The notes below the pieces were generated by a model that was not told where the DNA came from, did no database searches, and worked only from the letters and a program-made list of their open reading frames with translations. A stretch of DNA of 64,000 bases from Anaerolineae bacterium (GTDB lineage: Bacteria > Chloroflexota > Anaerolineae > B4-G1 > SLSP01), in contig JALOOJ010000014.1 of NCBI GenBank assembly GCA_025454475.1, positions 179 through 64,178 on the forward strand, read 5' to 3'. Position numbers and translations under genes: made by a program. Below, in pieces: positions 7,445 through 34,991 of this stretch. Numbering within the stretch: the stretch's first letter is position 1; every line of letters begins with the position of its first letter.

Positions 7445-7843
7445 GGGGATGATCGGTTTCGACGGGGAAGGCTGGCTGTGGGCTGCGAGCCGGGGAGGCT
7501 TCGTCTCCGTAAACCCAGAAGCAAACCAATAAATGCCAACACTATGGCAAACACTTGGGCGCCCGTCGCCGTTGCTGCGTAAGCAGTAAGCGACTAACCC
7601 CAAAAACCTGACCGGGTATCCGGTCACGCCCCTCTGGCATCTCGTATGCGTGTCAGAGTAAGGTGATATAATGTATACGTGCTAGCTGGCAGACACCGAT
7701 AAGCCAGTCCAAGAAAAATCGGATGGCGCGGATGCGGCGTGGTCGGCAACGGCCCTCCGCGCGACACGAAATCGCCGACTACGCTCGTAGAGGCTCATTG
7801 TCGATTTCTTCGGACGCGGGTTCGATTCCCGCCATCTCCACCA
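7445..7843 (+). ncRNA. ssrA: tmRNA (SsrA), standard one-piece form
   Basis: 5' GGGGATGATCGGTTTCGACGGGG and 3' GGACGCGGGTTCGATTCCCGCCATCTCCACCA (T-arm plus CCA) form the tRNA-like domain. Internal tag reading frame ...GCA AAC ACT TGG GCG CCC GTC GCC GTT GCT GCG TAA (7547-7582) encodes ANTWAPVAVAA, or ANTMANTWAPVAVAA if resumed at GCC 7535. Confidence 0.85.
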
Positions 7844-17202: not shown

Positions 17203-18894
17203 TTGGCGAACAGTGATGAGGCAATATCCATGACCCAGAAAACCGTGAAGGACTACTACGCCGTCCTTGGGTTATCGTCACGGGCGTCGCTGGATGAGAT
17301 TCGGCTGGCCTATCGCAAGCAAGCGCGGGCCTACCATCCTGACCTGAGCACAGACCCGGATGCTGCAGAGCGGTTCCGGGAAGTGAACGAGGCGTATGAG
17401 GTCCTGGCCAATGCGGAGAAGCGTCATGCCTACGACTACTTCACTGCGGGGATGCCACCCCTGGAGACGCCCCAGATGGACGATGTGCCCCACCTTGATT
17501 CATCACCGCCGCTATCAGCCCCCTTTGCGCCATCTTTGGCTGGGCCCGGGCCCGTGATGCCGCCGCCGTTATCGGCAGCCAGGGCAGAGGCTCCGCGGCG
17601 GGTCTATCCGCCCACTTGGGCGATTCTGCTGATCGTGGTCGGCGCATGTACCATCGTTGGCGTTGGCATCGGAGCGTTCCTCTCGCTTCGGCGCAATCGC
17701 CCCACGGGCGGGGCTGGGGCCGTCGATGTGGTGAAGCTGGCCACGTTCCTCTCCCCGCCGTCGATTCCGGAGAATCTCACGGTTCTGCAAGAAGACGATA
17801 TGCCTTTGCGCACGGTCGCGCCCATCCAACTCATGGTAGGCGGTGATGTCTTCCCCGTTGTAGCCGTGGTTCCGGAGCAGGGGCGGTGGCCGATGCCTGC
17901 GGAACAAGAGCAGTTGGGGGTATGGATCCACGGGACGCTGATCAACTATGTGATCGGGATGCCCTACACGGCCGATATGGAGTATTTGCTCTCCGGGCTG
18001 ACGAGCAGCGATCGCCTTACGCTCACGCTGGAGAGTGGGATGGCCCTCGTGTTCGGATCTCCTCAGTTGAAACGCGTCGCGCTCGATGACATGTCACCGC
18101 TGGCTCAGGACACCCCGGAGCTCACGTTGTTGACGCTGGGCGACGGCCGCTCCAACCGTCTGGTCGTCAAGGCTCGATACCTGCCGGAGAACGTGGCTCC
18201 AGTCGTTGAACAGAGCGCCGATGGCCTTGGGGTCAAGATAATGCGTGCCGACGTGGTCCCGGGCGTGGCCCCCGACGATGGGGAATCGGCGTACTTCGTA
18301 GTCGAGTTTGAAGTGATCAATGGAAACGCGTCCGCTGTTAATCCGGCGTTCTTCGATATGGTGCTGGAGGATGGTCGCGGACAGCGATATATGCTGAATG
18401 ACACCGCGACAAGCAAGGGCAACTACGGCAAGCTCAGCCTGCCGGTTCTAGCTGGCGCGAGCGTCTCCGGCAGCGCCGGCTATGTGATACCACGTCAGGT
18501 TGTCGCGCCTCTCGTCTGGATTTTCAGGGCCGATGTGACTTCCAGCGATGTGGTCAGGTTTGTCACGAGCTACGAACCCCCTGCGCCAACGCCGGCGGCG
18601 CCCGAAGTTGAGCTTAGCGAAGCGTTCTTCGACCGGAATCGCGATGTGATTGTTATCTCGGGCACGGTCTACAATGATGGGGGCTCGAACTTGAGTGTTG
18701 CCGCTGAATCCGTTGAACTGACCTCCAGCATGGGCCAAAGCAGGCTGGTTGCCTCGACGCCGTTGTTGCCGTGGCCTATCATTCCCGGTAGCTACCAGGA
18801 CTTCGAGCTTCAGTTCGAGGCGCCGGCGAGCACCGACTCGGTGCTGCTCAACATCCTGGGGTTTACCTTCGAGATCGAGGGCTTGACCCCCTAA
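17203..18894 (+). CDS. J-domain (DnaJ-like) membrane protein with C-terminal extracytoplasmic DUF4352-like domains
   Basis: J domain DYYAVLGL...[12 protein letters not shown] (HPD motif), Pro-rich linker, TM helix ([22 protein letters not shown]), then beta-rich C-terminal domains. Confidence 0.7.
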
Positions 18895-19709
18895 GCTTCC
18901 AGGACGATCAAGGCGCCGAAGCGACCTGTCCGGCCCCCTTCGGAACGGTGCGAGTACCACTCGTCTGTGCGGCACGCCGTGCAGATTCCTGCGTGGTCGA
19001 TCGCGCGGACCCCCAATGCTGTCAGCTGCGCATGGATTGCGCCCGGCAGGTCGAGGGTCCACTGGTCTGCCCGTCTGAAAGCGACCTGCGCTCCGGGAGG
19101 AAGCGTGGCCTGGACCGCGTCAACGACTGCGTCGCCCACCGCATAGTGGTCACTACAGATCGATGGGCCGATTCCTGCCCAGAGGTCGCTCGGATCTGTC
19201 CCGAAGGTTGCGGTCAGGTGCGCCAGGGCGGCGGGCACCACCTGTGCAGCTACGCCGCGCCAGCCGGCGTGTGCCAGGCCGATGACGTGGTGCACGGCGT
19301 CATAGAACAACACCGGAACACAGTCGGCAAAGCGCAGCAGGAGCGCTAAGCCGGGCTGGTTGGTGACGAGGGCGTCGGTCGCCGGGATCACCGAGCCCCC
19401 ATCGCGGCGGTCCGCTGTGGCGACGTGCGCGCCATGGACCTGGTGCGGGCTCACGACTGCGGCTCTCGATAGGCCCAGTGCCCCAAAGAGTCGCCGATGG
19501 TTCTCCTCAACGGCCCCAGGATCGTCGCCGACCGAACTACCAAGGTTCAGGGCGGCGAATGGGGCCCGGCTGACTCCACCCAGGCGCGTGACCATCGCGT
19601 GTTGGAAGCCCTTCAGGGAATGGATACCTCGATCCCCTGAAGGGCGCGGGTCTATGAAGTGGTACCAGGCGATGCCTGTTCCCGGATCCTCGACGCGCTG
19701 AAGGGGCAT
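18891..19709 (-). CDS. pgeF: peptidoglycan editing factor PgeF (YfiH/DUF152, laccase-domain purine nucleoside phosphorylase family)
   Basis: Conserved H and C motifs ([45 protein letters not shown]). Confidence 0.8.
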
Positions 19710-19716
19710 GCCGCCC

Positions 19717-20232
19717 CTACGAGCGGGCGGTTCGGAAACCGTGGGCGAAGAGTGTCTTCAGGACGAGCCCAACCCAGCCGACGGCCCAGAACCCGAGGAG
19801 GATGCCCGCCAGAGCCACTTTTTGCTCGTCGACGATGGGCTTGACGTGTGTTCCATCTGGACCGACCTCGATGTAGGCGATGGGACGTACATGCGCGCCA
19901 GCCCCGCCGCCTGCGCCGCTCGCTGGCTCGTGTACGTCGCATTCACAGGGCTCGTCCTCACAGCAGCCCTCGTCCGCGCAGCATGCCTCGCCCTCGGGTT
20001 CAGTCTCACTGCCGCATTCGCACTCGCCTTCACACTCACACTCTTCCTCACATCCGCACGAACATTCCGGCGGCTCTGAGGTTCCTGCTCCCATTCCGAA
20101 GCCATACGTCACCTCAGCCACGGGGATAAGCGTGCGTCCCTCAATGACCTGCGGTTTTCCGAACACCGCGTCCACGTTGGCCTCGGCAGACATCTTCTCG
20201 AATCGGTTCACCAGTGCTGTGATTGCTTCCAT
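19717..20232 (-). CDS. GerW/YtfJ-family (Spore_YtfJ) protein with an internal Cys/Glu-rich insertion and a C-terminal TM helix
   Basis: Both conserved halves of the YtfJ fold flank a 48-residue insert with 13 Cys (PECSCGCEEECECEGECECGSETEPEGEACCADEGCCEDEPCECDVHEP). Confidence 0.7.
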   Translation of the reverse strand: MEAITALVNRFEKMSAEANVDAVFGKPQVIEGRTLIPVAEVTYGFGMGAGTSEPPECSCGCEEECECEGECECGSETEPEGEACCADEGCCEDEPCECDVHEPASGAGGGAGAHVRPIAYIEVGPDGTHVKPIVDEQKVALAGILLGFWAVGWVGLVLKTLFAHGFRTARS

Positions 20233-20246
20233 TCAACTAGCCTCCT

Positions 20247-20549
20247 CTATCTACGCCACAGGAATCGGATCGCGCCTATCAGGAATACGGCGGCCAAGGC
20301 GATACCTACGGCTGGAGCAGCCATGGTACTGATCGTGGCTGTCGTTTCATTGGGAATCTCCATCCATTGTGCGCCCTCGGGTCCCTCAACCACGATCGAT
20401 ACTGGTCTTGCCTTCACTTGGCGGAATAGCCCACGCCCCGGCACTCCATAGGCCGTTGTATCCACGAGGACTGAGGGCAATAATCTCACCTCGCCCAGGT
20501 CGATCGGCGTTGCTGCCACCAATCGGGTTCGTTTTTCGGGTAGCTTCAT
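20247..20549 (-). CDS. hypothetical small protein with C-terminal TM helix
   Basis: ORF 20247-20642, start placed at the internal Met (MKLPEKRTRL). Co-directional and tightly spaced with the GerW-like gene. Confidence 0.4.
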   Translation of the reverse strand: MKLPEKRTRLVAATPIDLGEVRLLPSVLVDTTAYGVPGRGLFRQVKARPVSIVVEGPEGAQWMEIPNETTATISTMAAPAVGIALAAVFLIGAIRFLWRR

Positions 20550-20574
20550 GGATACCTCCATACGGGAAGGCGCC

Positions 20575-20895
20575 TCATTGCAGGAGCGCGTCCTTGTCAC
20601 AGTAACTCGGCCATCCGTTGGGCAGATCCAGGTCACAGACATCGGAATCCACGGGATAGCGGGTCAGCTCAAGCGCCATATCCAGGCCATCGGCGATGTC
20701 GTCCAGTGTCGTGGCCATCGGCGTGTCGGTCCAGCGTAGATCGGTGATGTGCTCCCGAATCCACCTGGAGGCCATCAGCCGTTGTGACTCAGGGACCTTG
20801 AGCAAGATGACCTCGCCCTGGCCGATAGCGTCCAGCAACGCATCGAGGCTGCTATAGCCCATCATCTTCGCGATCTCACGTGCTCGGTCGATCAT
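20575..20895 (-). CDS. hypothetical acidic protein
   Basis: 106 aa, no recognisable motif; first gene of the minus-strand cluster ending in pgeF. Confidence 0.4.
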   Translation of the reverse strand: MIDRAREIAKMMGYSSLDALLDAIGQGEVILLKVPESQRLMASRWIREHITDLRWTDTPMATTLDDIADGLDMALELTRYPVDSDVCDLDLPNGWPSYCDKDALLQ

Positions 20896-20940: not shown

Positions 20941-22821
20941 TCAGCCGATGAAACCAGCCTGAGGGATCAAGTCAGCGTAGTCCTGGACTGAGCCCTGATC
21001 CAGACAGCACTCGATGATCCGGCGCCCGAGGGGATCCAAGCTATCAGTCAAGAAGAGGCCCAGTTGCTGGTGGAAGAAATCGGTCAGAATACGTGCGCCC
21101 TGGTCGTAGCCGTCATTGCCGACCTCGGGCTGAGTGTTCACTTGCAGGAACCACCGGGCAACAAACCGGCCCTCCAACTGCAGTTGGTGGAGTGCATAGC
21201 CGAGCAAGGGGCTGCGCGCTGGGCGAATCTGGTCAGCCTTGAACTTGGCGCTTCCCCGACGCGCCAGATACTCGCGCATAAGCCACTCAGCCATGAACCC
21301 GACGCGCCATGCGCCGATGTACTGGTTGGGGCAGAGCACATAGCGCGTGTTGAGATTGTCTCGGAATTGCGTCAGCAGCAGATTGGCTTGATCGACGCGC
21401 AGGCCGGTCGCAAAAGGCCAATAGGAGCCCACGCCCTCGCTGCTCATACCCTTGGTGTCGATGATGCTCGGGCTGTCGTGCCCGCGCGGTGCAGCGAGTC
21501 GCCACAGCCACGCCAGTGCCGGCGGTAGCAGGTGAAAGAGGCCGATGATCCCATACGTAGGATGCTCCTCTGTACACGGGGGCGTGCGGACGCCGAAGCT
21601 GCGGATGTCGACCTGCACCGGCTCGTTGACGATATTGGGGAAGATGCTGCGCGGGACAACCACGCGTGGATTTGGGCAAGGCTTTCCTGGCGTGTCTTCA
21701 ATGTGCTCCCAGATCAGGGCACGGCTACCGGGCACTGCATAGAGGTTCATAAAGAGCAGCGGTTCGGACGGCTCCGCCGTCAGGCGTTCCAGGTGGACAT
21801 CGGTCCCGTAGTGATCGATATGGTTGACGCGGAGAAACCACGCATCTTCGGCATCGACGACGGTGAGTTTGCCGGAGCCGGTTTGCAGCGAGGGGTGGCA
21901 GAGCGCCATGTCATCGGCTACGGGGTATAACTCGCAAGATCGTGGGATCTCGAGGTAGCGGCGCTCGCCGGTCAGCATGTTCTCCCCGAGCAGTAGCCGC
22001 CCGTCTTCCTCACGCTGTGCGTGCTCCAGAAGCTCGCTCTTGCCACCTCCGCTCGCAGCTTCGTGCATCATCGTTGTCACGTTATCGTAGGGTGTCACCA
22101 CCATCACGGCCGAACAGTGCGCAGTCACCCATCCCTCTTTTTCGCCCTGGGCCAGCAACATTCCGTATACACCCTTTTTTGCGCTCGGGCCCGGGTAGAG
22201 GTTGTAGGAGAACATCTCGTGCAGGTCCGGCATGCGGTTGTGGACGACCACCTGTCTGCCGTCGAAGTGCGTGTGCCTGAAGGGTGGGGCCACGTAGATG
22301 ATCGACTTAGGGCAAAAGTCCTCGGGGATGTCTTCCTCAGCGATGATGCCTTGCAGGAGGGCGAGACTCATTCCGAAGAACCCCGCGTTTGCGGGCGCGA
22401 TGACCACGGAATCCTGTCCCATGCCGCGCTGCCCAGTCACATAGCCAAACATCATCAGCGGGCGCGCTGCCAGCCAATCGAAGGTGGCTTGGCGCATCGG
22501 CGCGAACTCGCTTCCGTAGCGCTCCAGGTACGTAGGCTTATCGGTAGGACCGTCGTCGGCGACGACCAGGCAGTCGGGATCGCGCCGTCGCATGTAGGGT
22601 TCGGGGTAGTTGACCGAAACGCCATTGCGCACCCGGGCGACAATTGCCTCGACGACGTCGCCCTGCTCAGGTACGTCATACGAGACTTCGAAGTGGCTGC
22701 TGCCCATCCCGCCGCAGGCGAGGTTGACCAGTTCAGTCACAGTGCTGGCAATCGTCAGGCTGGGACAAGCTTTGACGATCCGCGCGGCCTCCGCAGGTAG
22801 ATGATATCGCTCCCAATCCAT
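20941..22821 (-). CDS. large uncharacterised protein, DUF4914-like, with an HprK/PEPCK-like P-loop (ASGGGKSE)
   Basis: About 626 aa from Met MDWERYHL; the long ORF begins at 22950. Family assignment is from memory only. P-loop-like motif seen directly. Confidence 0.55.
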   Translation of the reverse strand: MDWERYHLPAEAARIVKACPSLTIASTVTELVNLACGGMGSSHFEVSYDVPEQGDVVEAIVARVRNGVSVNYPEPYMRRRDPDCLVVADDGPTDKPTYLERYGSEFAPMRQATFDWLAARPLMMFGYVTGQRGMGQDSVVIAPANAGFFGMSLALLQGIIAEEDIPEDFCPKSIIYVAPPFRHTHFDGRQVVVHNRMPDLHEMFSYNLYPGPSAKKGVYGMLLAQGEKEGWVTAHCSAVMVVTPYDNVTTMMHEAASGGGKSELLEHAQREEDGRLLLGENMLTGERRYLEIPRSCELYPVADDMALCHPSLQTGSGKLTVVDAEDAWFLRVNHIDHYGTDVHLERLTAEPSEPLLFMNLYAVPGSRALIWEHIEDTPGKPCPNPRVVVPRSIFPNIVNEPVQVDIRSFGVRTPPCTEEHPTYGIIGLFHLLPPALAWLWRLAAPRGHDSPSIIDTKGMSSEGVGSYWPFATGLRVDQANLLLTQFRDNLNTRYVLCPNQYIGAWRVGFMAEWLMREYLARRGSAKFKADQIRPARSPLLGYALHQLQLEGRFVARWFLQVNTQPEVGNDGYDQGARILTDFFHQQLGLFLTDSLDPLGRRIIECCLDQGSVQDYADLIPQAGFIG

Positions 22822-22907: not shown

Positions 22908-25900
22908 TTAGGTCATCCCCGGCGGCGTTTGCGCTCGAAGCGCTCGCCACAATCGCTCAGGTGTTACCGGCGTTCGCTGGACCATCACGCCAGTGGCGTC
23001 ATAGATCGCATTGATGACCGCAGGGGCGACCCCATTGACGACGATCTCCGCCACTGACTTGACACCCACAGGGTGCGACGGCTCGAAGGTCTCGACGAAG
23101 AGCGTTTGCATCGGTGGCATTTCGTCAGCGCGGAGCACGCGGTAGTCATCGAAGCGCGGGTTCACGGTGCGGCCCTGATCGTCGTAGATAAGCTCCTCGG
23201 TCAGCGCATAGCCCAACGCCTGATGCATCCCGCCCTCCGCCTGGCCGCTTGCCGTCAGGGGGTTGACGATCTGCCCGGAGTCCAGGGCGATCAGCAGGTT
23301 GTCTACCACTGTCTGGCCGGTCTCGGTGTCGACGGTGACCTCGGCAAACTGTGCGCCGAAGGGCGGCGGGCTCACAGGACTCACAAACGATGCGTGCCCC
23401 ATGATTTGGTGCTGGTTCTGCGTGTGGAGCGCGAACAGCGCGATCTCGCGAAGCCCCAAGCTTGCGCCGTCCTTGCGCCAGGCCCGTCCACCCCTCAGCG
23501 TGAAAGCCGAAGGAGCGCCCCCGACCATCTCCGCAGCCACGGCCCGGATCTGGTCCGCTACTGCGTTTGCAGCCCGGGCAACGGCCCCGCCACTGACATA
23601 GGTAGTACTGGACGCGTAGGCGCCCTTGTCGAAGGGCGTCACGTCCGTGTCCGAAGACCGGATGATCAGGTTCGTCAGACTGCAGCCCAGGACCTCTGCA
23701 GCGATCTGGCCCAACACCGTGTCGGATCCCGTGCCCAAGTCGGTGGCGCCGATCATCAAGTTGAACGAGCCATCGTCGTTCATCTTGATATTTGCCGCCC
23801 CCATGTCCAAGTTGGGGATCCCTGAGCCCTGCATCAGGAAGGCAACGCCGATTCCACGGCGCAGGTGCGGCTTGCCCCAGACCACGTGCCAGTCTGGGTG
23901 GCCGAACTTTCGGGACCAGTCGACGGCTGCTGCGCCCTGGATGGCCGCCTCACGCAGCGCGTTGGTTTCGATGATTTCGCCACGGGCCTCGCGTCCCTCA
24001 CTCCACGTCTTGCTCATGATGTTTTCGGTGTGTGGGGCGATGATGTTGCGCAGGCGGAACTCCAATGGATCGAGTCCCAGTTCGTGCGCCGCGCGCGTGA
24101 TAAGCGTCTCGGTAGCGATGACCCCCTGGGTGACGCCATAGCCGCGGAAGGCCCCCGCACGGGGGAGGTTCGTGTAGTAGGTCTCGCCCCGGAAGCGAAC
24201 GTTGGGGGTGTTGTATAGCGGGAGGGTCTTGTGTCCGGTGTTGCCCAGCACCGTCAGCCCGTGCCCGCCGTAGGCGCCCGTGTCGCTGATGGCGTGCATA
24301 TCCTGCGCGACCATGATGCCGTCCGCGTCGACGCCGATGCGATACGTCACTCGCATCGGGTGCCGCGTGGTCGTGTAGATGAACTGCTCCTCGCGCGTGA
24401 GCTCCAGGAAGACTGGGCGCCCGGTGGCGATCGTCAAGTGCGCCGGGATGTCCTCGTAGATCTCCTGTTTATTGCCGAAGGCCGCCCCGATGCGCGGTTT
24501 GATCACGCGGATGCGGCTTTCGGGGAGTCCCAGAACCGGCGCCAGAATCCTGCGTACGTGAAATGGAACCTGCGTCGAGGCCAGGATGACCAGCCGGTCG
24601 TCCTCGTCCCAATACGTCAGGGTCACCCAAGGTTCCAGGGGGACGTGCTTCATCTTCTGCGTGTCGACGGTAGTTTCGAAGACCCGAGCCGCACGGCCAC
24701 ATGCGTCATCGACATTACCGACCTCAAGGTCCACCTTGGCGACGAGGTTCCGGGCGGGGTCGCTCTCCCCGAATCTAGCATAGTCGTCCTGATCGTGGAT
24801 GATCGGCGCGCCCTCTGCCATAGCGGCATCCATCGTTAGCGCCGCCGGTAGCACCTCGTAGTCTACCCGGATCAGACCAATGGCTTCCTCCGCAATCTCG
24901 GGGCTGTCGGCAGCCACTGCCGCCACACGATCGCCCACATAGCGAACCTTCCGGTCGAAACTCACGTAGTCCAGCGGTCCAGGAATGGGGTAAGACTGCC
25001 CGGCTGTTGAGTAGACGACGCGGGGCACGTTCTTGTGGCACAGTACCGCACGCACGCCGGGCAGGTTCTCAGCCTCGCGCGTGTCAATCTCCCTGATTCG
25101 CGCATGGGCGTGGGGGCTGTGGAGGATCTTGGCATAGAGCATCCCGGGACGCTCGAAATCGGCTACGAAGGCTGCGTGTCCCTGCACGAGCTTCGGCGCA
25201 TCCACTTTGGGTAGGGGCTGGCCGACGACATCGAAGCGCTGCCCCTCCGTTGAGACAAAGACTGTCGGATGCGTCTGGATGCGAGTCTGTGTGGCTGAAT
25301 GAGGTGCACCACCGGACTCCAGGGGCTCGGGTTCGACGCTGGGGGCGGGGCCAAACGGGCTGGGAGGGAGCAAGTCGTCGGGCATACGATACAGATCGGC
25401 GGTCGCGTCATCGCCGATGGGGCCGAGGTCCTCGCCGCGCATGATCGCGGCTGCGCGCAGGATTGCGGAAACGGGCTTCGCATACCCGGTCTCGCGCGAT
25501 ACAATGCCACTGATGGCATCGCGAACTTCCGCCTCGGTAGGGGTGCGCGTGCGCTCCAATAGCGCCAGCCCCGCGAGGATCAGGGCAGGTGTGTCGTAGC
25601 CGCTCTGGATCGCCCCGGTGTCGATGAAGGCCTGCTGCAGCGGGTGCCACGCGGGACCACGGTCCCAGCCCAGTAGCTGCGGCCCCCTCAGCCCTTCGAG
25701 CGTCAGGACCTCAGCGCCATCTACCTGGGCGGCGAGCAGGGTCACACTGCTCACCGCGTGCCCGTTCACCAATACCGTGCTATACCCATCGGCGCCGTCC
25801 TCGCTGCCGAACTTCATACTGTGCAGACCAGGCCGCTGGGAAGCGGGACGCCGGAGAAGGCGAAACAAGGTGTCTCGTGGTGATATGTCGAACTGGCGTT

Positions 25901-25931
25901 TTTCTCCGTTTAGGGTAATGGTGATCTGCAT
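22908..25931 (-). CDS. xanthine dehydrogenase/aldehyde oxidase-family molybdopterin-binding subunit with a fused N-terminal cysteine-less [2Fe-2S]-type domain
   Basis: N-terminus aligns to CoxS/XdhA-type 2Fe-2S subunits (TLNGEK...TLLxxLR...TVLVNG...QQAFIDTGAIQSGYDTPALI) but every Cys position is substituted. Followed by a/b hammerhead (HSPHAHARI...GVRAVL) and MoCo-binding domains. Start at MQITITLNG (25931). Confidence 0.85.
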   Translation of the reverse strand: MQITITLNGEKRQFDISPRDTLFRLLRRPASQRPGLHSMKFGSEDGADGYSTVLVNGHAVSSVTLLAAQVDGAEVLTLEGLRGPQLLGWDRGPAWHPLQQAFIDTGAIQSGYDTPALILAGLALLERTRTPTEAEVRDAISGIVSRETGYAKPVSAILRAAAIMRGEDLGPIGDDATADLYRMPDDLLPPSPFGPAPSVEPEPLESGGAPHSATQTRIQTHPTVFVSTEGQRFDVVGQPLPKVDAPKLVQGHAAFVADFERPGMLYAKILHSPHAHARIREIDTREAENLPGVRAVLCHKNVPRVVYSTAGQSYPIPGPLDYVSFDRKVRYVGDRVAAVAADSPEIAEEAIGLIRVDYEVLPAALTMDAAMAEGAPIIHDQDDYARFGESDPARNLVAKVDLEVGNVDDACGRAARVFETTVDTQKMKHVPLEPWVTLTYWDEDDRLVILASTQVPFHVRRILAPVLGLPESRIRVIKPRIGAAFGNKQEIYEDIPAHLTIATGRPVFLELTREEQFIYTTTRHPMRVTYRIGVDADGIMVAQDMHAISDTGAYGGHGLTVLGNTGHKTLPLYNTPNVRFRGETYYTNLPRAGAFRGYGVTQGVIATETLITRAAHELGLDPLEFRLRNIIAPHTENIMSKTWSEGREARGEIIETNALREAAIQGAAAVDWSRKFGHPDWHVVWGKPHLRRGIGVAFLMQGSGIPNLDMGAANIKMNDDGSFNLMIGATDLGTGSDTVLGQIAAEVLGCSLTNLIIRSSDTDVTPFDKGAYASSTTYVSGGAVARAANAVADQIRAVAAEMVGGAPSAFTLRGGRAWRKDGASLGLREIALFALHTQNQHQIMGHASFVSPVSPPPFGAQFAEVTVDTETGQTVVDNLLIALDSGQIVNPLTASGQAEGGMHQALGYALTEELIYDDQGRTVNPRFDDYRVLRADEMPPMQTLFVETFEPSHPVGVKSVAEIVVNGVAPAVINAIYDATGVMVQRTPVTPERLWRALRAQTPPGMT

Positions 25932-26144
25932 AAAGTCCTCGTCCATGCCGCTCGGGAGCGTTGAGACCGGGATGTTTTTCGATTATCCGAGCCATTGTAC
26001 CGGGATTGATGCGTCTGTCAAAGGTCTGAGGCGTAGGTTTCAGGGCTGAGTGTGCTATAATTGGATTGGATCGTGACACTCATTGCCTTCGGGCTCTGGG
26101 CACCCGCTGTCAGAATGCCTCGTCACGACACCTCGGGAGATCCA

Positions 26145-29386: not shown

Positions 29387-29532
29387 CTCACGGAAGCTTC
29401 AGTGCCTCACGGGATCTGATGAAAGGAGGTGCATCCGGCAGCGACTTCGTCGTACTGGGGTGGCTTGTCTCGAAGTGTGTTGTTAGCAAAGCCGGCGTTT
29501 CGGTTTCACTCAAACCAAGGAGGGTTTTCTCT

Positions 29533-30585
29533 ATGCGTAAGCATCTGTCGATTGGGTTGGCCGCCATTCTTCTGGCGAGTCTCGTGATGACCGCATGCGG
29601 TGGTGGCGCTGCCAGCGGCTACAAGGTCGGTATGGTGACCGACATGGGCGGAATCGACGACAAGTCGTTTAACGCACTTGGGTGGAAGGGTATCGAGGAT
29701 GGCATCAAGGAGCTTGGCATTGAGGGCTCCTACCTTGAGTCGCAGCAACAGACTGACTACGCTACGAACATCACGCAGTACGTGAACCAGGAGACGGATC
29801 TCATCGTCACCGTAGGGTACATGCTAGCCGACGATACGGCGAGCTTCGCGGCGGCTAATCCTGACGTGAACTTTGCCATCGTCGACTTCTCGTACGCTCC
29901 GCCGATTGACAACGTCCGAGGTCTGACATTTGCGACTGATCAGGCGTCCTTCATGGCGGGTTACATCGCGGCTGCCGTGACCAAGACCGGCAAGGTCGCC
30001 TGCTTCGGTGGTATCAATATCCCCTCGGTGGCGATTTTCATGGTGGGCTATGAGGCGGGTGTCAAGTACTACAATGAGAAGCATGGCACCAATGTCGAGG
30101 TCTTGGGCTGGGACACGGCGGCGAACAATGGGGTCTTCGTCGGCAACTTTGAGTCCACGGACGATGGACGTCGTACGGGTGAGGAGTTTCTCGCCGAGGG
30201 CGCCGACGTCATAATGGCTGTGGCCGGTCCCGTGGGTCAGGGTACCGCTGAGGCGGTGCAGGCAGCTGGGAATGCATGGTTCATCGGTGTCGACGCAGAC
30301 TGGACGGTCACGGCATCTAAGTACTCGGACATCATCCTGACCAGTGTCCTGAAGAACATTGATGTTGCCGTCCTCGACACGATCAAGTCGGCCTCTGCGA
30401 GTGGTTTCGCCGGCTTTGGCGGCGAGTCCTATGTTGGGACGCTGGCCAACAACGGTGTGGGCCTGGCCGATGTGGCAAGTGGCGCGATCTCCAACGATAT
30501 TGAAGATGAGCTCGAGGATGTCCGCCAGGGCATCATCGACGGCACTATCGACTCGGGTTGGGAGACCTACCTGTCCAACCTGTAG
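29533..30585 (+). CDS. BMP-family (basic membrane lipoprotein, PnrA/NupN-like) ABC transporter substrate-binding lipoprotein
   Basis: Lipoprotein signal (LLASLVMTAC-GGG), then BMP-family fold motifs (GMVTDMGGIDDKSFN, FIGVDADW). Confidence 0.85.
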   Translation: MRKHLSIGLAAILLASLVMTACGGGAASGYKVGMVTDMGGIDDKSFNALGWKGIEDGIKELGIEGSYLESQQQTDYATNITQYVNQETDLIVTVGYMLADDTASFAAANPDVNFAIVDFSYAPPIDNVRGLTFATDQASFMAGYIAAAVTKTGKVACFGGINIPSVAIFMVGYEAGVKYYNEKHGTNVEVLGWDTAANNGVFVGNFESTDDGRRTGEEFLAEGADVIMAVAGPVGQGTAEAVQAAGNAWFIGVDADWTVTASKYSDIILTSVLKNIDVAVLDTIKSASASGFAGFGGESYVGTLANNGVGLADVASGAISNDIEDELEDVRQGIIDGTIDSGWETYLSNL

Positions 30586-30741
30586 TGTGATGGGCGAAGA
30601 GGGGAGCGGGCTGCTCGGAAGCGGTTCGCTTGTGAGCGACTTGCTCCCCTGAGTCGGCGGCAGGCGCCGGGATGCTGCCTGGCGGCGGGGCGTCCCTATG
30701 GGGCGTGCTCTGCTATGGTTGCTTAGGTTGCCGCTAGAGCA

Positions 30742-32268
30742 TTGGAGGTGACGATGCCCCCTGTACTGCAGCTTCGAGGGATCACCAAGCGTTTCCCCGG
30801 TGTTCTCGCCAATGATCACATCGACCTGGAGCTCGAGCAAGGGCAGGTCCTCGCCCTGCTTGGCGAGAATGGCGCCGGCAAGAGCACGTTGATGAACATC
30901 CTATATGGTCTGTATCACCCGGACGAGGGCGAGATCTACGTCCGCGGCGAGAAGGCCGATATTCAGGGTCCGAGCGACGCTATCAAGCTGGGCATTGGCA
31001 TGGTGCACCAGCATTTTATGCTCGTCCCTGTCTTGACTGTCACAGAGAATGTGATGCTGGGCATGGAGTCCATACGGAACGGCATCGTCTTGGACCGCGC
31101 CAAGGCGGCGAGGCGTATCCGCGATATCTCAGACCAATATGGCCTGGAGGTCGATCCAGAGGCAACGGTGGAGGACTTGCCGGTAGGGATCCAGCAGCGG
31201 GTGGAGATCATCAAGCTGCTCTACCGGAACGCAGACATCCTCATCCTCGACGAGCCCACAGCTGTCCTGACCCCGCAGGAGGTCATGGGACTGATTGCCG
31301 TGATCCGTTCGCTAGTCGCCCAAGGGAAGTCGGTCGTCTTCATCTCTCACAAGCTCAAGGAAGTGCTGGAGCTCTCAGATCGCATCGTAGTGCTGAGGCG
31401 CGGACGTTCGGTAGGAGCCACGACCCCAGCGGAAAGCGATGAGCGCAGCCTAGCCTCGATGATGGTGGGACGGGACGTGATCCTAGAAGTGCCCAAGGGT
31501 CCGGCAAATCCGGGTGACGTGGTCCTTGATGTTCGGGATCTGGTAGTCAAGGGAGATCAGAACAAGGTCGCTGTGTCCGGCGTCAGTTTCCAGGTTCGGG
31601 GCGGCGAGATTGTGGGCGTGGCAGGGGTCCAGGGTAACGGGCAGACGGAGCTGATAGAGGCGCTCACGGGCCTACGAGCCGTCGAAAGTGGGCGCGTCGA
31701 GCTTGGAGGCCGAGACGTCGCCAATGCCTCTCCAAGGTCGATCACGGAGGACGGAACGGCACACGTGCCGGAGGACCGGCAACGAGATGGGCTTGTGCTG
31801 GGCTACTCCGTTGCTGACAATCTGATTCTCAATACGTACTACCTGGCGCCCATTGCCAAGGGCCTTGCTATGCAGGAAGCGGCCATTACCGATCGGGCCG
31901 ATCGCCTTATCAAAGAATACGATGTGCGTACACCCACGCCCCTAACCCCTGCGGGTAACCTGTCCGGCGGCAATCAACAGAAAGTCATCGTCGCGCGTGA
32001 GCTGAGCCGACCGGTGAAGCTGACGATCGCGTCCCAGCCTACGCGGGGCCTGGACGTTGGCTCGATCGAGTACATTCACTCACAACTAGTCAAGAAGCGA
32101 GATGAGGGGGCGGCGGTGATCGTCGTATCCGCGGAGCTTGACGAGGTGATGGCCCTGGCGGATAGGATTCTCGTGATGTATGAGGGGCGGATCATGGGCG
32201 CCCTCGATGCTGCCGCTGCTACCAAAGAGTCGCTGGGTATGCTCATGGCAGGTGTAGCGACAGAATAG
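30742..32268 (+). CDS. ABC transporter ATP-binding protein with duplicated ATPase domains (nucleoside/sugar type)
   Basis: Two Walker A/LSGG/Walker B sets (GENGAGKST...LSGGNQQK...). Start may be the Met at 30754. Confidence 0.9.
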   Translation: MEVTMPPVLQLRGITKRFPGVLANDHIDLELEQGQVLALLGENGAGKSTLMNILYGLYHPDEGEIYVRGEKADIQGPSDAIKLGIGMVHQHFMLVPVLTVTENVMLGMESIRNGIVLDRAKAARRIRDISDQYGLEVDPEATVEDLPVGIQQRVEIIKLLYRNADILILDEPTAVLTPQEVMGLIAVIRSLVAQGKSVVFISHKLKEVLELSDRIVVLRRGRSVGATTPAESDERSLASMMVGRDVILEVPKGPANPGDVVLDVRDLVVKGDQNKVAVSGVSFQVRGGEIVGVAGVQGNGQTELIEALTGLRAVESGRVELGGRDVANASPRSITEDGTAHVPEDRQRDGLVLGYSVADNLILNTYYLAPIAKGLAMQEAAITDRADRLIKEYDVRTPTPLTPAGNLSGGNQQKVIVARELSRPVKLTIASQPTRGLDVGSIEYIHSQLVKKRDEGAAVIVVSAELDEVMALADRILVMYEGRIMGALDAAAATKESLGMLMAGVATE

Positions 32269-32398
32269 CGGGGATGTCTGTCTGAATCTCGGATTACACT
32301 GATTACGATATCCCACGGACGGCGGAGATCGTCCCCTGGTTTGGTCCGTGAAATCCAGGAATCTGTGTCATCCGTGAATCAGACTCTCCAGTACAAGC

Positions 32399-33703
32399 GT
32401 GGGAAGAGGAGTGTCCATGGACGACAAGACTGTAGCGAGCGCCATTGCCAACGCGGTCCAACAACCGAAGAGCGGGGCCCCTACCCCGAAGGGGCAGCAT
32501 CGCCGGGGCGGCTGGCTGAGGCAACTGCTTGTCCCACTTCTGGCGATCATCACGGCATTGATCCTCGGGGCTCTAGTCATCGCCTTTACGGATGAATCCG
32601 TCTTTCAAGCGTTTGGCGGCGGGTTTGGGCGTGGTGTCGGACAGGCCTTCTCTGTCATCGGACGGGCCTACGGCGCGTTCTTCTCCGGGGCCTTCGGGAA
32701 TCCTGTCCGGATCATCAGCGCGCTCATCAGCGGACAGGGGGCCCAGATACGGCGGGCCATCTACCCGCTGATGGAGACGCTGCGCATCTCAACCCCCTAT
32801 ATCTTCGCCGGTCTTGCGGTCGCGCTAGGTTTCCAGGGCGGTGTGTTCAACATCGGCGCCGAAGGTCAGTACTTCATCGCCGGCCTGGTAACGGTGTTCG
32901 TCGGATATGCCATCAAGGGCCTTCCTGCCATCGTGCACTTGCCGCTGGCGCTGCTCGCTGGGGTAGTGGGGGGCGGTCTGTGGGGCGCGATCCCAGGGTA
33001 CCTAAAGGCCAAGACCGGCGCGCATGAGGTCATCAACACGATTATGTTGAACTACATCGCGTTCCGTCTTGCGGAGTTCATGCTGGATGCCAATGGGTTG
33101 ATGGCTCGGGGCGATGGGCGGCCGGTCAGCCCAGAGATCCAGCCAAGTGCCTATCTACCGCAGTTCTTTCCCAACCAAGTCGAGCTGCGGGTCAATGTCG
33201 GCTTCTTCTTGGCTCTGGCGGCGGCAGCCCTGGTCTGGTGGCTGCTTTACAAGACGACGCTCGGCTATGAGATCCGCACCGTTGGTGCAAATCCCCGCGC
33301 TGCTCGCTATGCTGGCATGAGCGTTGCCCGGACCATTGTCATCACGATGGCCCTGAGTGGGGCGCTCGCCGGGCTTTCAGCCTCCACGGACATACTCGGC
33401 GTGTTGCACTATATGCCTAACGCTTTCTCCTCGGGGTACGGATTTGACGCTATCGCTCTCGCCCTTCTGGGCAAGAGCCATCCGTTTGGTGTGGTGCTGG
33501 CATCGTTGCTCTTTGGGGCCCTACGGGCGGGGGCTCAGAACATGCAAGGTATTGCGCAGGTGCCGGTCGACCTGACGTCGATCGTGCAGGGCCTGATCAT
33601 CGTGTTCATCGCCGCTCCCGAGATTATCCGGAAGCTCTACCGGCTACGACAACCCGTGGAGGGTGAGGAGTTGGTGACGGTTCGCGGATGGGGTGGCGCG
33701 TGA
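32399..33703 (+). CDS. ABC transporter permease (first of two, branched-chain/sugar type)
   Basis: Multi-TM protein downstream of the ATPase; alternative start Met at 32417. Confidence 0.8.
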   Translation: MGRGVSMDDKTVASAIANAVQQPKSGAPTPKGQHRRGGWLRQLLVPLLAIITALILGALVIAFTDESVFQAFGGGFGRGVGQAFSVIGRAYGAFFSGAFGNPVRIISALISGQGAQIRRAIYPLMETLRISTPYIFAGLAVALGFQGGVFNIGAEGQYFIAGLVTVFVGYAIKGLPAIVHLPLALLAGVVGGGLWGAIPGYLKAKTGAHEVINTIMLNYIAFRLAEFMLDANGLMARGDGRPVSPEIQPSAYLPQFFPNQVELRVNVGFFLALAAAALVWWLLYKTTLGYEIRTVGANPRAARYAGMSVARTIVITMALSGALAGLSASTDILGVLHYMPNAFSSGYGFDAIALALLGKSHPFGVVLASLLFGALRAGAQNMQGIAQVPVDLTSIVQGLIIVFIAAPEIIRKLYRLRQPVEGEELVTVRGWGGA

Positions 33704-33737
33704 TGACGATCAACGGGTCGTCTTACAGGAGGGATCG

Positions 33738-34991
33738 ATGACACTGATCAAGACGTCGGCAAAGGCCCAGCGACGGGCACGGACGTTAGGCGTTGTCTTG
33801 CTTGTGTCTGCGCTGGCCATTCTGCTGTTGTTCGTCCCAGGAGCAAATGCCGGTCAGACAACCACGTTCGCCTTCAACGAGACGCGTAGCGAAGCCTTTG
33901 CGATTCCCGAGCTTGCCTTCCCGACACGGGCCGGACTCTATCTCATGGCGGCCCTGACTGCGTTCGCTGGAGCCTACCAACTCGCCCGGGGGTTCACGCG
34001 CCAGGGTGCCGTGCTAGGCATTGTCGCGGGTCTGTTTGTGCTGGCCTTTCTAACATGGGCGGCGCGTGGTCAGTCGATGAACCTCACCGGTATGATGAAG
34101 TCCTCGCTCTTGCGCGCGATTCCCATCATCCTGGCGGCGCTGAGCGGCGTGATGTGTGAACGGTGTGGTATCGTCAACATCGGGATCGAGGGCATGATGC
34201 TGAGTGGCGCGTTTCTGGCTGCGCTTATCGGCAGTGTGGCGAACAACGTCTGGGTCGGCCTGATTGGCGCGATGCTGGGAGGCGCCCTGATGGCGGCCCT
34301 CTTGGCTGTGTTGGCGATCAAGTACCGGGTCAACCAGATCGTCGCGGGGACGGCTATCAACATCCTGGCCACCGGACTGACGAGCTACTTCAGCTCGCGC
34401 TACCTGCAGAAGTACGAAGTGCTGAACACCCCCCCCACCTTCTTGCCAATCCCTCTGCCCGGCCTGTCGCGCATCCCCATCATCGGTCCGGCGCTGTTCA
34501 ATCACACGGTACCGGTCTATCTGACGCTTGTGCTGGTGATCGCGATCCAGCTGATGTTGTTCTACACGCGCTGGGGCCTGCGCACCCGTGCTGTGGGCGA
34601 GCACCCCAGAGCGGCTGACACGTTGGGCGTGAATGTCTTCTTGACGCGCTACGTGAATGTACTCCTTGGGGGATGTGTTGCGGGGCTCGGCGGAGCCTAT
34701 CTAGTGCTGAGCTCTGTCGCGCGCTTTGACGAACTGATGACCGCTGGGAAGGGCTACATTGGCCTTGCTGCGATGATCTTTGGCAAGTGGAACCCTGTGG
34801 GGGCCTTTGGTTCTTCGCTGATGTTCGGGTTTGCGGATTCGCTGCAGACGCGGTTGGCCATTCTGGCTGTCCCCATTCCTTCGCAGTTCCTGTTGATGGC
34901 ACCCTACCTGCTGACGATGGTCGTACTGGCGGGCGTTGTAGGACGGTCCCGTGGGCCGGCTGCTGGCGGCCAGCCTTACGAGAAGGAATAG
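33738..34991 (+). CDS. ABC transporter permease (second)
   Basis: Multi-TM permease; start placed at Met MTLIKTS (33738) within the ORF beginning 33693. Confidence 0.8.
   Translation: MTLIKTSAKAQRRARTLGVVLLVSALAILLLFVPGANAGQTTTFAFNETRSEAFAIPELAFPTRAGLYLMAALTAFAGAYQLARGFTRQGAVLGIVAGLFVLAFLTWAARGQSMNLTGMMKSSLLRAIPIILAALSGVMCERCGIVNIGIEGMMLSGAFLAALIGSVANNVWVGLIGAMLGGALMAALLAVLAIKYRVNQIVAGTAINILATGLTSYFSSRYLQKYEVLNTPPTFLPIPLPGLSRIPIIGPALFNHTVPVYLTLVLVIAIQLMLFYTRWGLRTRAVGEHPRAADTLGVNVFLTRYVNVLLGGCVAGLGGAYLVLSSVARFDELMTAGKGYIGLAAMIFGKWNPVGAFGSSLMFGFADSLQTRLAILAVPIPSQFLLMAPYLLTMVVLAGVVGRSRGPAAGGQPYEKE

Follow-up and report, generated by a model that had tools for sequence, protein, structure and literature searches.

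How does a molybdenum (Mo) enzyme belonging to the xanthine oxidase family exchange electrons once its protein has lost the ligands of both iron-sulphur (Fe-S) clusters? The question is raised by a gene on the reverse strand of a 64,000-nucleotide stretch (64 kb; hereafter the window) of contig JALOOJ010000014.1 from an Anaerolineae bacterium, whose product joins an N-terminal domain of the [2Fe-2S] type to Mo domains of the xanthine dehydrogenase (XDH) kind and keeps none of the eight cysteines that would hold the clusters. To our knowledge every characterised enzyme of the family is described as moving electrons from Mo via two [2Fe-2S] clusters. Most members also have a subunit or domain for flavin adenine dinucleotide (FAD), which is absent in those of the MOP type. 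The reading that we favour, and to which we give about an even chance, is that the gene would encode a functional and selectively maintained molybdenum cofactor (Moco) enzyme of the XdhD-like branch that works without the canonical electron wire.

Alignment with HMMER to the aldehyde oxidoreductases (AOR) of Desulfovibrio desulfuricans (1dgj) and D. gigas (1sij) places the four motifs named in the original prediction exactly on the ligand motifs of the two-cluster Fe-S subunit, and bears out the homology of the N-terminal region that had been proposed there. In these motifs GCGKGQCGAC has become GSEDGADGYS, RAC has become SSV, QCGFCTPG has become QSGYDTPA and CRCTGY has become SRETGY, so that all eight ligand cysteines are replaced. 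The positions of the N-terminal ferredoxin-like cluster (FeS II) are now S48, D53, S56 and V68, lying within a conserved loop, KFGSEDGxDGYS, and those of the second cluster (FeS I) are S115, D118, S150 and E152. No ligand is found at a shifted position, there being no cysteine in residues 1-300 and three in the entire protein, and because none of the eight survives canonical clusters cannot bind, as had been claimed. The small Fe-S subunit models of NCBIfam nevertheless cover amino acids (aa) 3-169 (best named match glyceraldehyde dehydrogenase gamma, E 3.9e-30), and the domains of the xanthine oxidase family turn up in Pfam searches, with E values of 3.6e-28 for the hammerhead and 1.8e-75 and 3.8e-68 for the two Moco-binding domains; the best sequence matches in the PDB reach E 2.9e-101. 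The protein scores 642.1 bits against TIGR03313 (YgfN/XdhD) and 653.7 bits against NF043082 (XdhA), below the respective cut-offs of 1101.9 and 780.

The loss of the ligands is shared by a large group of proteins. Sorting the 120 best hits of a search in a large protein collection gave a clade of 77 proteins, at least 69% identical to the target, with none of the eight cysteines (clade D); a clade of 16 proteins, about 62% identical, that keep only the four cysteines of FeS II (clade B); a clade of 23 proteins, 57-59% identical, with all eight (clade A); and one protein, P0118, with only the FeS I cluster of the Fer2_2 subdomain. The relatives that keep cysteines (P0097-P0120, P0080-P0096 and P0118) are 57-64% identical to the target, equal in length and alike in domain order, and 384 of the 1012 positions are at least 95% conserved across all groups. 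The pattern of loss, which 77 of the 120 best homologs share, is far beyond chance, and the replacement residues (KFGSEDGxDGYS, QSGYDTPA, SRETGY) are themselves fixed in the clade; the original prediction had proposed a search for homologs with the same loss, and these are they. A scan of the genomes of species representatives gave 78 loci, about 55 of them cysteine-less and every one of the latter with the catalytic glutamate; all 78 come from metagenome-assembled genomes (MAGs) of Anaerolineae, Thermoflexales or other Chloroflexota except one Actinomycetota MAG (L081).

Purifying selection acts strongly on the protein as a whole. The ratio of nonsynonymous to synonymous substitution rates (dN/dS, method of Nei and Gojobori), estimated for the six closest pairs, ranged between 0.03 and 0.19 in the N-terminal domain and between 0.05 and 0.08 in the Mo domains, the linker at aa 175-238 being under more relaxed selection. 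An AlphaFold2 model built with 55 homologs has a mean predicted local distance difference test score (pLDDT) of 81.9 and a predicted template-modelling score (pTM) of 0.86, and in it the N-terminal domain is folded; its structural matches have template-modelling (TM) scores of 0.87-0.90, the best whole-chain match being the FAD-less AOR of D. gigas (TM 0.87). Decay to a pseudogene, an artefact of assembly and a resemblance by chance we regard as excluded for practical purposes: nothing was found in favour of them, and against them stand a full-length open reading frame (ORF) that more than 50 independent assemblies show intact, dN/dS well below 1 and Mo-domain E values of 1e-75 or lower.

Cysteines other than the ligands have also been mostly shed in clade D: past residue 200 its proteins have a median of 2, those of clades A and B one of 6-7, and cysteine makes up 0.30% of the target against an average of 0.64% in the other ORFs of the window. 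Among these further changes is a conserved LDCG that has become LDSG. An oxidising reaction environment is one possibility as the reason for this wider loss.

We then have to consider whether the Mo site has followed the clusters. The residue roles used here (catalytic Glu869, Arg533, Tyr535 and the pterin-contacting Gln99) are those that we take from the established Desulfovibrio structures; the catalytic glutamate stands beside Mo and corresponds to E1261 of the bovine enzyme and E869 of D. gigas AOR. In the target, E967 aligns with Glu869 of 1dgj and 1sij, R601 and Y603 with Arg533 and Tyr535, and Q114 with Gln99. No homolog or locus examined lacks E967, and Q114 and R601, the arginine of FRGYG, are invariant in the homologs; the comparison with characterised enzymes that the original prediction had recommended thus finds the catalytic glutamate retained. 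Twelve diverse relatives (E. coli XdhA and XdhD, P0118, P0148, clades A and B, and four more distant representatives) share 92 positions of the Mo region without variation, and the three cysteine-less members tested keep 87-89 of these. The only consistent change in the cysteine-less clade is that of G488 and G489 to alanine, which turns GGGFG into GAAFG and confirms the altered Mo-domain motif reported earlier (GAAFGNK against GGGFGNK in relatives). A glycine replacement at this motif has a precedent in D. gigas AOR, an active enzyme that carries GGTFG. Judged by these alignments the Mo site in the cysteine-less clade is intact.

The original prediction had read the protein as a pseudoenzyme or structural member of the family, for which one would expect loss of active-site residues together with relaxed constraint, and this part of it finds no support: the catalytic glutamate, the FRGYG arginine, Gln114 and nearly all the invariant positions are kept, and the low dN/dS values speak of strong purifying selection. 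The other part, that this is a neofunctionalised member of the family, may be correct. P0127 (977 aa, from the library of representatives) illustrates a dead Mo site in this family. It has degenerated in the opposite direction, keeping the eight Fe-S cysteines and losing 24 of the 92 Mo positions, with GGGFG changed to SGSAG, RGYG to CGNS and the catalytic glutamate to threonine. A related alternative is that the protein is non-catalytic, a Moco carrier, sensor or scaffold whose cofactor pocket has been kept for binding only. The total loss of the electron wire, the lack of a redox partner nearby, the altered GGGFG loop and the position of the gene in housekeeping surroundings and not in a catabolic cluster all fit this idea, which we nevertheless find improbable, as no member departs from the catalytic glutamate and the pocket residues, the Mo domains are as strongly constrained as those of enzymes, the truly degenerate P0127 looks very different and a cysteine-less protein from E. 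coli, to which we turn below, is reported to be active.

Differences fixed between the cysteine-less clade and clades A and B adjoin the positions mapped to Phe425, Phe494, Leu497, Tyr535, Leu626 and Glu869 of D. gigas AOR, residues that presumably line its substrate funnel. A remodelling of the active site at the time of cluster loss is only partly tenable as an explanation, given that outgroups or XdhD also have SGIP, EIVVNG, H434 and G563. Of the fixed differences about a quarter represent a state shared with the outgroups, and taken together they are divergence between the clades and not necessarily remodelling at cluster loss.

A model organism already offers a case of an XDH-type Mo subunit fused to a cysteine-less domain of the Fe-S kind. 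E. coli XdhD (YgfN, b2881; locus L088, 25317..28187 on the forward strand, strain MG1655), which serves as urate reductase in the reductive uricolytic pathway, has no cysteine before residue 190; its ligand positions are occupied by D, A, D, S and by S, N, S, D (motifs VRNSDDGFGFAGSDAII, VQSGYNDPAA and FSRDAGW), and its RefSeq name is 'fused ... molybdopterin-binding subunit and Fe-S binding subunit'. XdhD was reported in 2025 to co-purify with the FAD subunit YgfM and to convert urate with NADH to 2,8-dioxopurine, its E606 being proposed to orient urate (PMC12507026), and the work has been the subject of a commentary (PMC12990295). With this precedent, missed by the original prediction, the step taken there from cysteine loss to a non-redox protein does not follow of itself. 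Neither PMC12507026 nor PMC12990295 mentions Fe-S clusters in XdhD, its metal content or the electron path to Mo, and our literature searches found no discussion of the missing ligands.

Target and XdhD resemble each other in several respects. Both give in Pfam a weak Fer2_2 match, the a/b hammerhead, MoCoBD_1 and MoCoBD_2 and no Fer2 match, and the FeS I motifs are replaced in much the same way (QSGYNDPA and SRDAGW in XdhD, QSGYDTPA and SRETGY in the target). Both have GTG where E. coli XdhA has GQG, GAYASS where it has GAFASR, and an insertion (S/G)EG(R/K) absent from XdhA, in which E650 of the target corresponds to E606 of XdhD. These signatures mark the XdhD-like branch and not the cysteine-less state, because the eight-cysteine relatives carry all three as well. 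Identity to the target over the Mo region is 39% for XdhD, 37% for XdhA and 63-68% for clades A and B, and the pocket of the target differs from that of XdhD (MKH against AQQ, GHG against NHS, VTQGV against APKGN). The two differ also in their surroundings, XdhD having its partner YgfM and the target having no adjacent ygfM, ygfK or ssnA; in the window tblastn found neither ygfM nor any of the uricolytic genes associated with XdhD (ygfK, ssnA, hyuA, ygeWXY), and the only signal of uricolytic type in some 50 loci consisted of weak matches to an SsnA-like amidohydrolase in two of them.

The E. coli protein raises the alternative that the target too is served in trans: genes elsewhere in the genome would provide an FAD subunit, perhaps together with Fe-S proteins, to dock on the cysteine-less domain and supply electrons from NAD(P)H or ferredoxin, with urate or a related purine as substrate. 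Besides the reported activity of XdhD with YgfM, a YgfM-like gene (30% identical to YgfM) lies directly upstream of the eight-cysteine relative P0119, itself 58% identical to the target; there is hardly any variation in the FeS II loop KFGSEDGxDGYS, a part turned towards the flavin in canonical enzymes; and the neighbourhood holds a Bmp nucleoside transporter of the ATP-binding cassette (ABC) type and a PF02578 gene resembling purine-nucleoside enzymes. Still, we consider this alternative unlikely, if the most serious of those that we weighed against the favoured reading. Searches with tblastn using YgfM, XdhB and an Anaerolineae FAD subunit found no FAD subunit (PF00941 type) in the window, which agrees with the earlier statement that none is adjacent, and no gene like YgfM, XdhB or CoxM was found within 10 kb on either side of any of the roughly 50 cysteine-less loci or of any FeS II-only locus (genome context was covered over 64 kb around the target and 20 kb around each homolog). 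Nor is there an adjacent ssnA or ygfK beyond the weak amidohydrolase matches. By the established geometry of XDH, moreover, a flavin docked in its canonical position would be too distant from Mo for electron transfer without the clusters.

The phylogeny places the loss of cysteines in the target clade apart from that in XdhD. In neighbour-joining (NJ) trees of 759 Mo-domain columns with 200 bootstrap replicates, clade D was monophyletic in all 200, clades D, A and B with P0118 formed one group in all 200, and clade D never grouped with the XdhD type (0 of 200). Since the clade groups in every replicate with eight-cysteine relatives, its loss is independent of that in XdhD. It is probably also independent of the FeS I loss in clade B, the grouping of B with D appearing in one of 200 replicates and that of A, B and P0118 in 127. 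A simple stepwise series from eight cysteines through FeS II only to none was rejected on the grounds that the FeS II-only clade groups with the eight-cysteine clade; outgroup states split 18:15 at the sites that set these clades apart. The FeS II-only proteins (P0080-P0096; loci L004, L060-L066 and others) keep the flavin-side cluster and have lost the pterin-side one, which would already break the wire, and P0118 (L007/L008) and P0123 keep only FeS I. In a library clustered at 50% identity, all 37 fused representatives have the eight cysteines except P0123, P0148, P0125, P0139 and P0228, the last three of which aligned poorly or only in part; P0148 has none of the eight and is 52% identical to E. 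coli XdhD in the Mo region.

Cluster loss, complete or partial, therefore appears to have happened several times in the XdhD-like branch (in the XdhD type, clade D, the FeS II-only clade, P0118 and P0123), and such recurrence suggests that the clusters are under weak constraint there. In three lineages (XdhD, clade D and clade B) FeS I has been replaced in a near-identical manner, by Ser, then Asp, Glu or Asn, then Ser, then Glu or Asp. The last of these positions, E152 in the target, corresponds to Cys139 of D. gigas AOR, which we take to contact the amino group of the pterin; a carboxylate placed there could keep this contact.

We can now set out how the favoured Moco enzyme might work. The N-terminal domain, with both [2Fe-2S] sites replaced, would be kept as a structural module packing against the pterin, with Gln114 retained and Glu152 in place of the pterin-contacting cysteine. 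With its Mo site intact, the protein has most likely kept the ability to hydroxylate or dehydroxylate a heterocycle of the purine kind. The canonical wire running from Mo through FeS I and FeS II to FAD would be unusable, and since no flavin subunit is encoded nearby either, reducing equivalents would pass in or out at the Mo centre or close to it, the counterpart being a second small substrate, possibly O2, or an as yet unrecognised partner.

Comparison with other Mo enzymes helps to place such a scheme. The AORs of D. gigas and D. desulfuricans (MOP and MOD; 1sij, 1dgj) are like the target in being a single chain with two Fe-S-type domains, Mo domains and no FAD domain, and have equivalents in the target of their Glu869, Arg533, Tyr535 and Gln99; they are only 26% identical to it, their substrate funnel residues differ, and MOP binds two [2Fe-2S] clusters via eight cysteines of which the target has none. 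The Anaerolineae relatives of the target differ from it in keeping both clusters, FeS II only or FeS I only, and in having GGGFG and 6-7 further cysteines. Plant sulphite oxidase and other Moco-only enzymes of the sulphite oxidase family have no second redox cofactor in the polypeptide, and by analogy electrons in the target would have to pass at the Mo centre itself or via a separate protein; as that family is unrelated in fold and in cofactor coordination, the likeness is one of analogy and not of homology.

Several points weigh against our favoured explanation. We know of no xanthine-oxidase-family enzyme that turns over without Fe-S clusters, with the possible exception of E. coli XdhD. 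Beyond the 64 kb examined, the genome could carry a gene for a flavin or Fe-S partner. The change from GGGFG to GAAFG touches a cofactor-binding loop, and the model has low confidence at aa 488-492. Finally, the binding of Moco by the target is predicted from its sequence, as are catalysis and the electron route.

The layout of the gene and the features around it are listed in the table below. Residues are numbered from the first codon of the ORF 22908..25946 (reverse strand, 1012 codons), in which the ATG at 25931 is M6. This second ATG is very probably the true start because a Shine-Dalgarno-like GAGGA lies just upstream and homologs begin there, and the coordinates given in the original prediction can be kept. 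Upstream of the gene no Moco riboswitch or other RNA element was found, the only RNA match in the window being a tmRNA elsewhere, and no terminator-like site was found between the gene and the next one.

Features of the cysteine-less Mo protein gene and its surroundings (positions in the window; residues in the numbering of the 1012-codon ORF)
Feature	Position	Strand	Remarks
tmRNA gene	7445..7843	+	Rfam RF00023, 165.9 bits
PF02578 (YfiH/LACC1-type) gene	18891..19709	-	same strand as the enzyme gene, four genes downstream of it
Small gene	19717..20232	-	between s106 and PF02578 gene
Small gene	20247..20642	-	between s106 and PF02578 gene
s106 gene	20575..20895	-	106-aa protein; motif RYP..D.C.L.LP.GWPSYC
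DUF4914 gene	20941..22821	-	86 nt downstream of the enzyme gene; 626 aa, counted from M44 of the ORF as listed
Coding sequence, cysteine-less XdhD-like Mo protein	22908..25931	-	likely start ATG 25931
E967 codon, catalytic Glu equivalent	23046..23048	-	E869 of D. gigas AOR
Moco-binding domain 2 (MoCoBD_2), aa 694-944	23115..23867	-	GATDLGTGSDT, GAYASSTTY, GQAEGGM
S649-E650 of TWSEGRE insertion	23997..24002	-	aligned with E606 in E. coli XdhD (AIGEGKA); E. coli XdhA lacks it
Moco-binding domain 1 (MoCoBD_1), aa 400-635	24042..24749	-	MKH(432-434)VPLEP, GAAFGNKQE (487-495), FRGYGVTQG (600-608)
GAAFG motif, aa 487-491	24474..24488	-	GGGFG in relatives
a/b hammerhead (Ald_Xan_dh_C), aa 255-367	24846..25184	-	Pfam
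Variable linker, aa 175-238	25233..25424	-	low model confidence, relaxed selection
Fer2_2 helical subdomain, aa 82-162	25461..25703	-	Pfam 58 bits; held FeS I ligand positions
Beta-grasp (plant-ferredoxin-like) subdomain, aa 6-81	25704..25931	-	held FeS II ligand positions
Sigma-70-like promoter TTGACA-16-TACAAT	25994..26021	-	upstream of the enzyme gene; near consensus, 11/12 matches
Bmp/PnrA-type nucleoside ABC transporter	29419..34991	+	on the far side of the enzyme gene from PF02578

The neighbours in the window are of the housekeeping kind (RNase III, ClpB-like, UvrD, DnaJ-domain and FtsK proteins), and no Fe-S, XdhC-like chaperone, MocA, SsnA or YgfK homolog was found in it. The PF02578 gene and the Bmp transporter give a loose purine-nucleoside theme to these otherwise housekeeping surroundings. 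Downstream of the enzyme gene and on the same strand follow DUF4914, s106, a second small ORF, a YtfJ-like gene and the PF02578 gene. The two small genes between s106 and PF02578 are conserved in about 17 related loci; one has a weak Spore_YtfJ/GerW match, and the other has no family match, with a GerW-like N-terminal stretch seen by eye. Downstream of the FeS II-only relative lies a 455-aa gene that is shared by close relatives only.

We considered the DUF4914 protein as the missing redox partner and rejected it. It has an SGGGKSE P-loop and is 69% identical to proteins of Verrucomicrobia, and its model, which is poor (pLDDT 59.9), matches only phosphoenolpyruvate carboxykinases (PEPCK; E about 1e-12); it looks like an uncharacterised, widely conserved enzyme of the PEPCK fold in its own right. 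No literature mention of DUF4914 was found.

Its neighbour s106 is the best candidate for a specific partner, though missing from many loci. The gene was found only beside cysteine-less members; neither it nor DUF4914 was found beside genes of clades A or B. In the 51 informative cysteine-less loci the order enzyme-DUF4914-s106 occurs in 16, s106 follows directly after the enzyme in 10 and lies a few kb away in 2, DUF4914 alone is present in 9 and neither gene in 14. A database search returned 67 proteins only, those with a named source being all hypothetical proteins of Anaerolineae, and C87, C99 and the GWPSYC motif are invariant. One could accordingly imagine s106 as a new small subunit that supplies a redox centre in trans, where a dimer might for instance bridge a cluster, or as a factor in the maturation of an Fe-S-free enzyme. 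We think this quite improbable: s106 is absent within reach in 23 of the 51 loci, it has no match in Pfam or the PDB and no similarity to known Fe-S or chaperone families, two cysteines per chain are weak evidence for a cluster, and the adjacency could be inherited synteny.

Returning to the favoured reading of a maintained Moco enzyme, its significance lies in the existence of a large and conserved clade without clusters or a nearby flavin subunit, yet with a Mo site that seems intact. This clade is not alone in the trait, the same loss of ligands being found in E. coli XdhD, which is still labelled as Fe-S binding in RefSeq. The convergent pattern on the pterin side, in which cysteines give way to Ser, Asp/Asn/Glu, Ser and Glu/Asp, is a natural recipe for a stable scaffold free of clusters. 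It is conceivable, although on balance we doubt it, that the target is a Moco-only member of the xanthine oxidase family, turning over without Fe-S or flavin and passing electrons directly at Mo or via s106, and that the whole XdhD-like branch, including the urate reductase of E. coli, may not depend on the wire from Mo through the two clusters to FAD. How the Mo centre is wired with both [2Fe-2S] clusters gone is the main interest of the locus and can be tested directly on E. coli XdhD; if the cysteine-less proteins are active, a second way of coupling a Mo centre to its redox partner must exist in this family.

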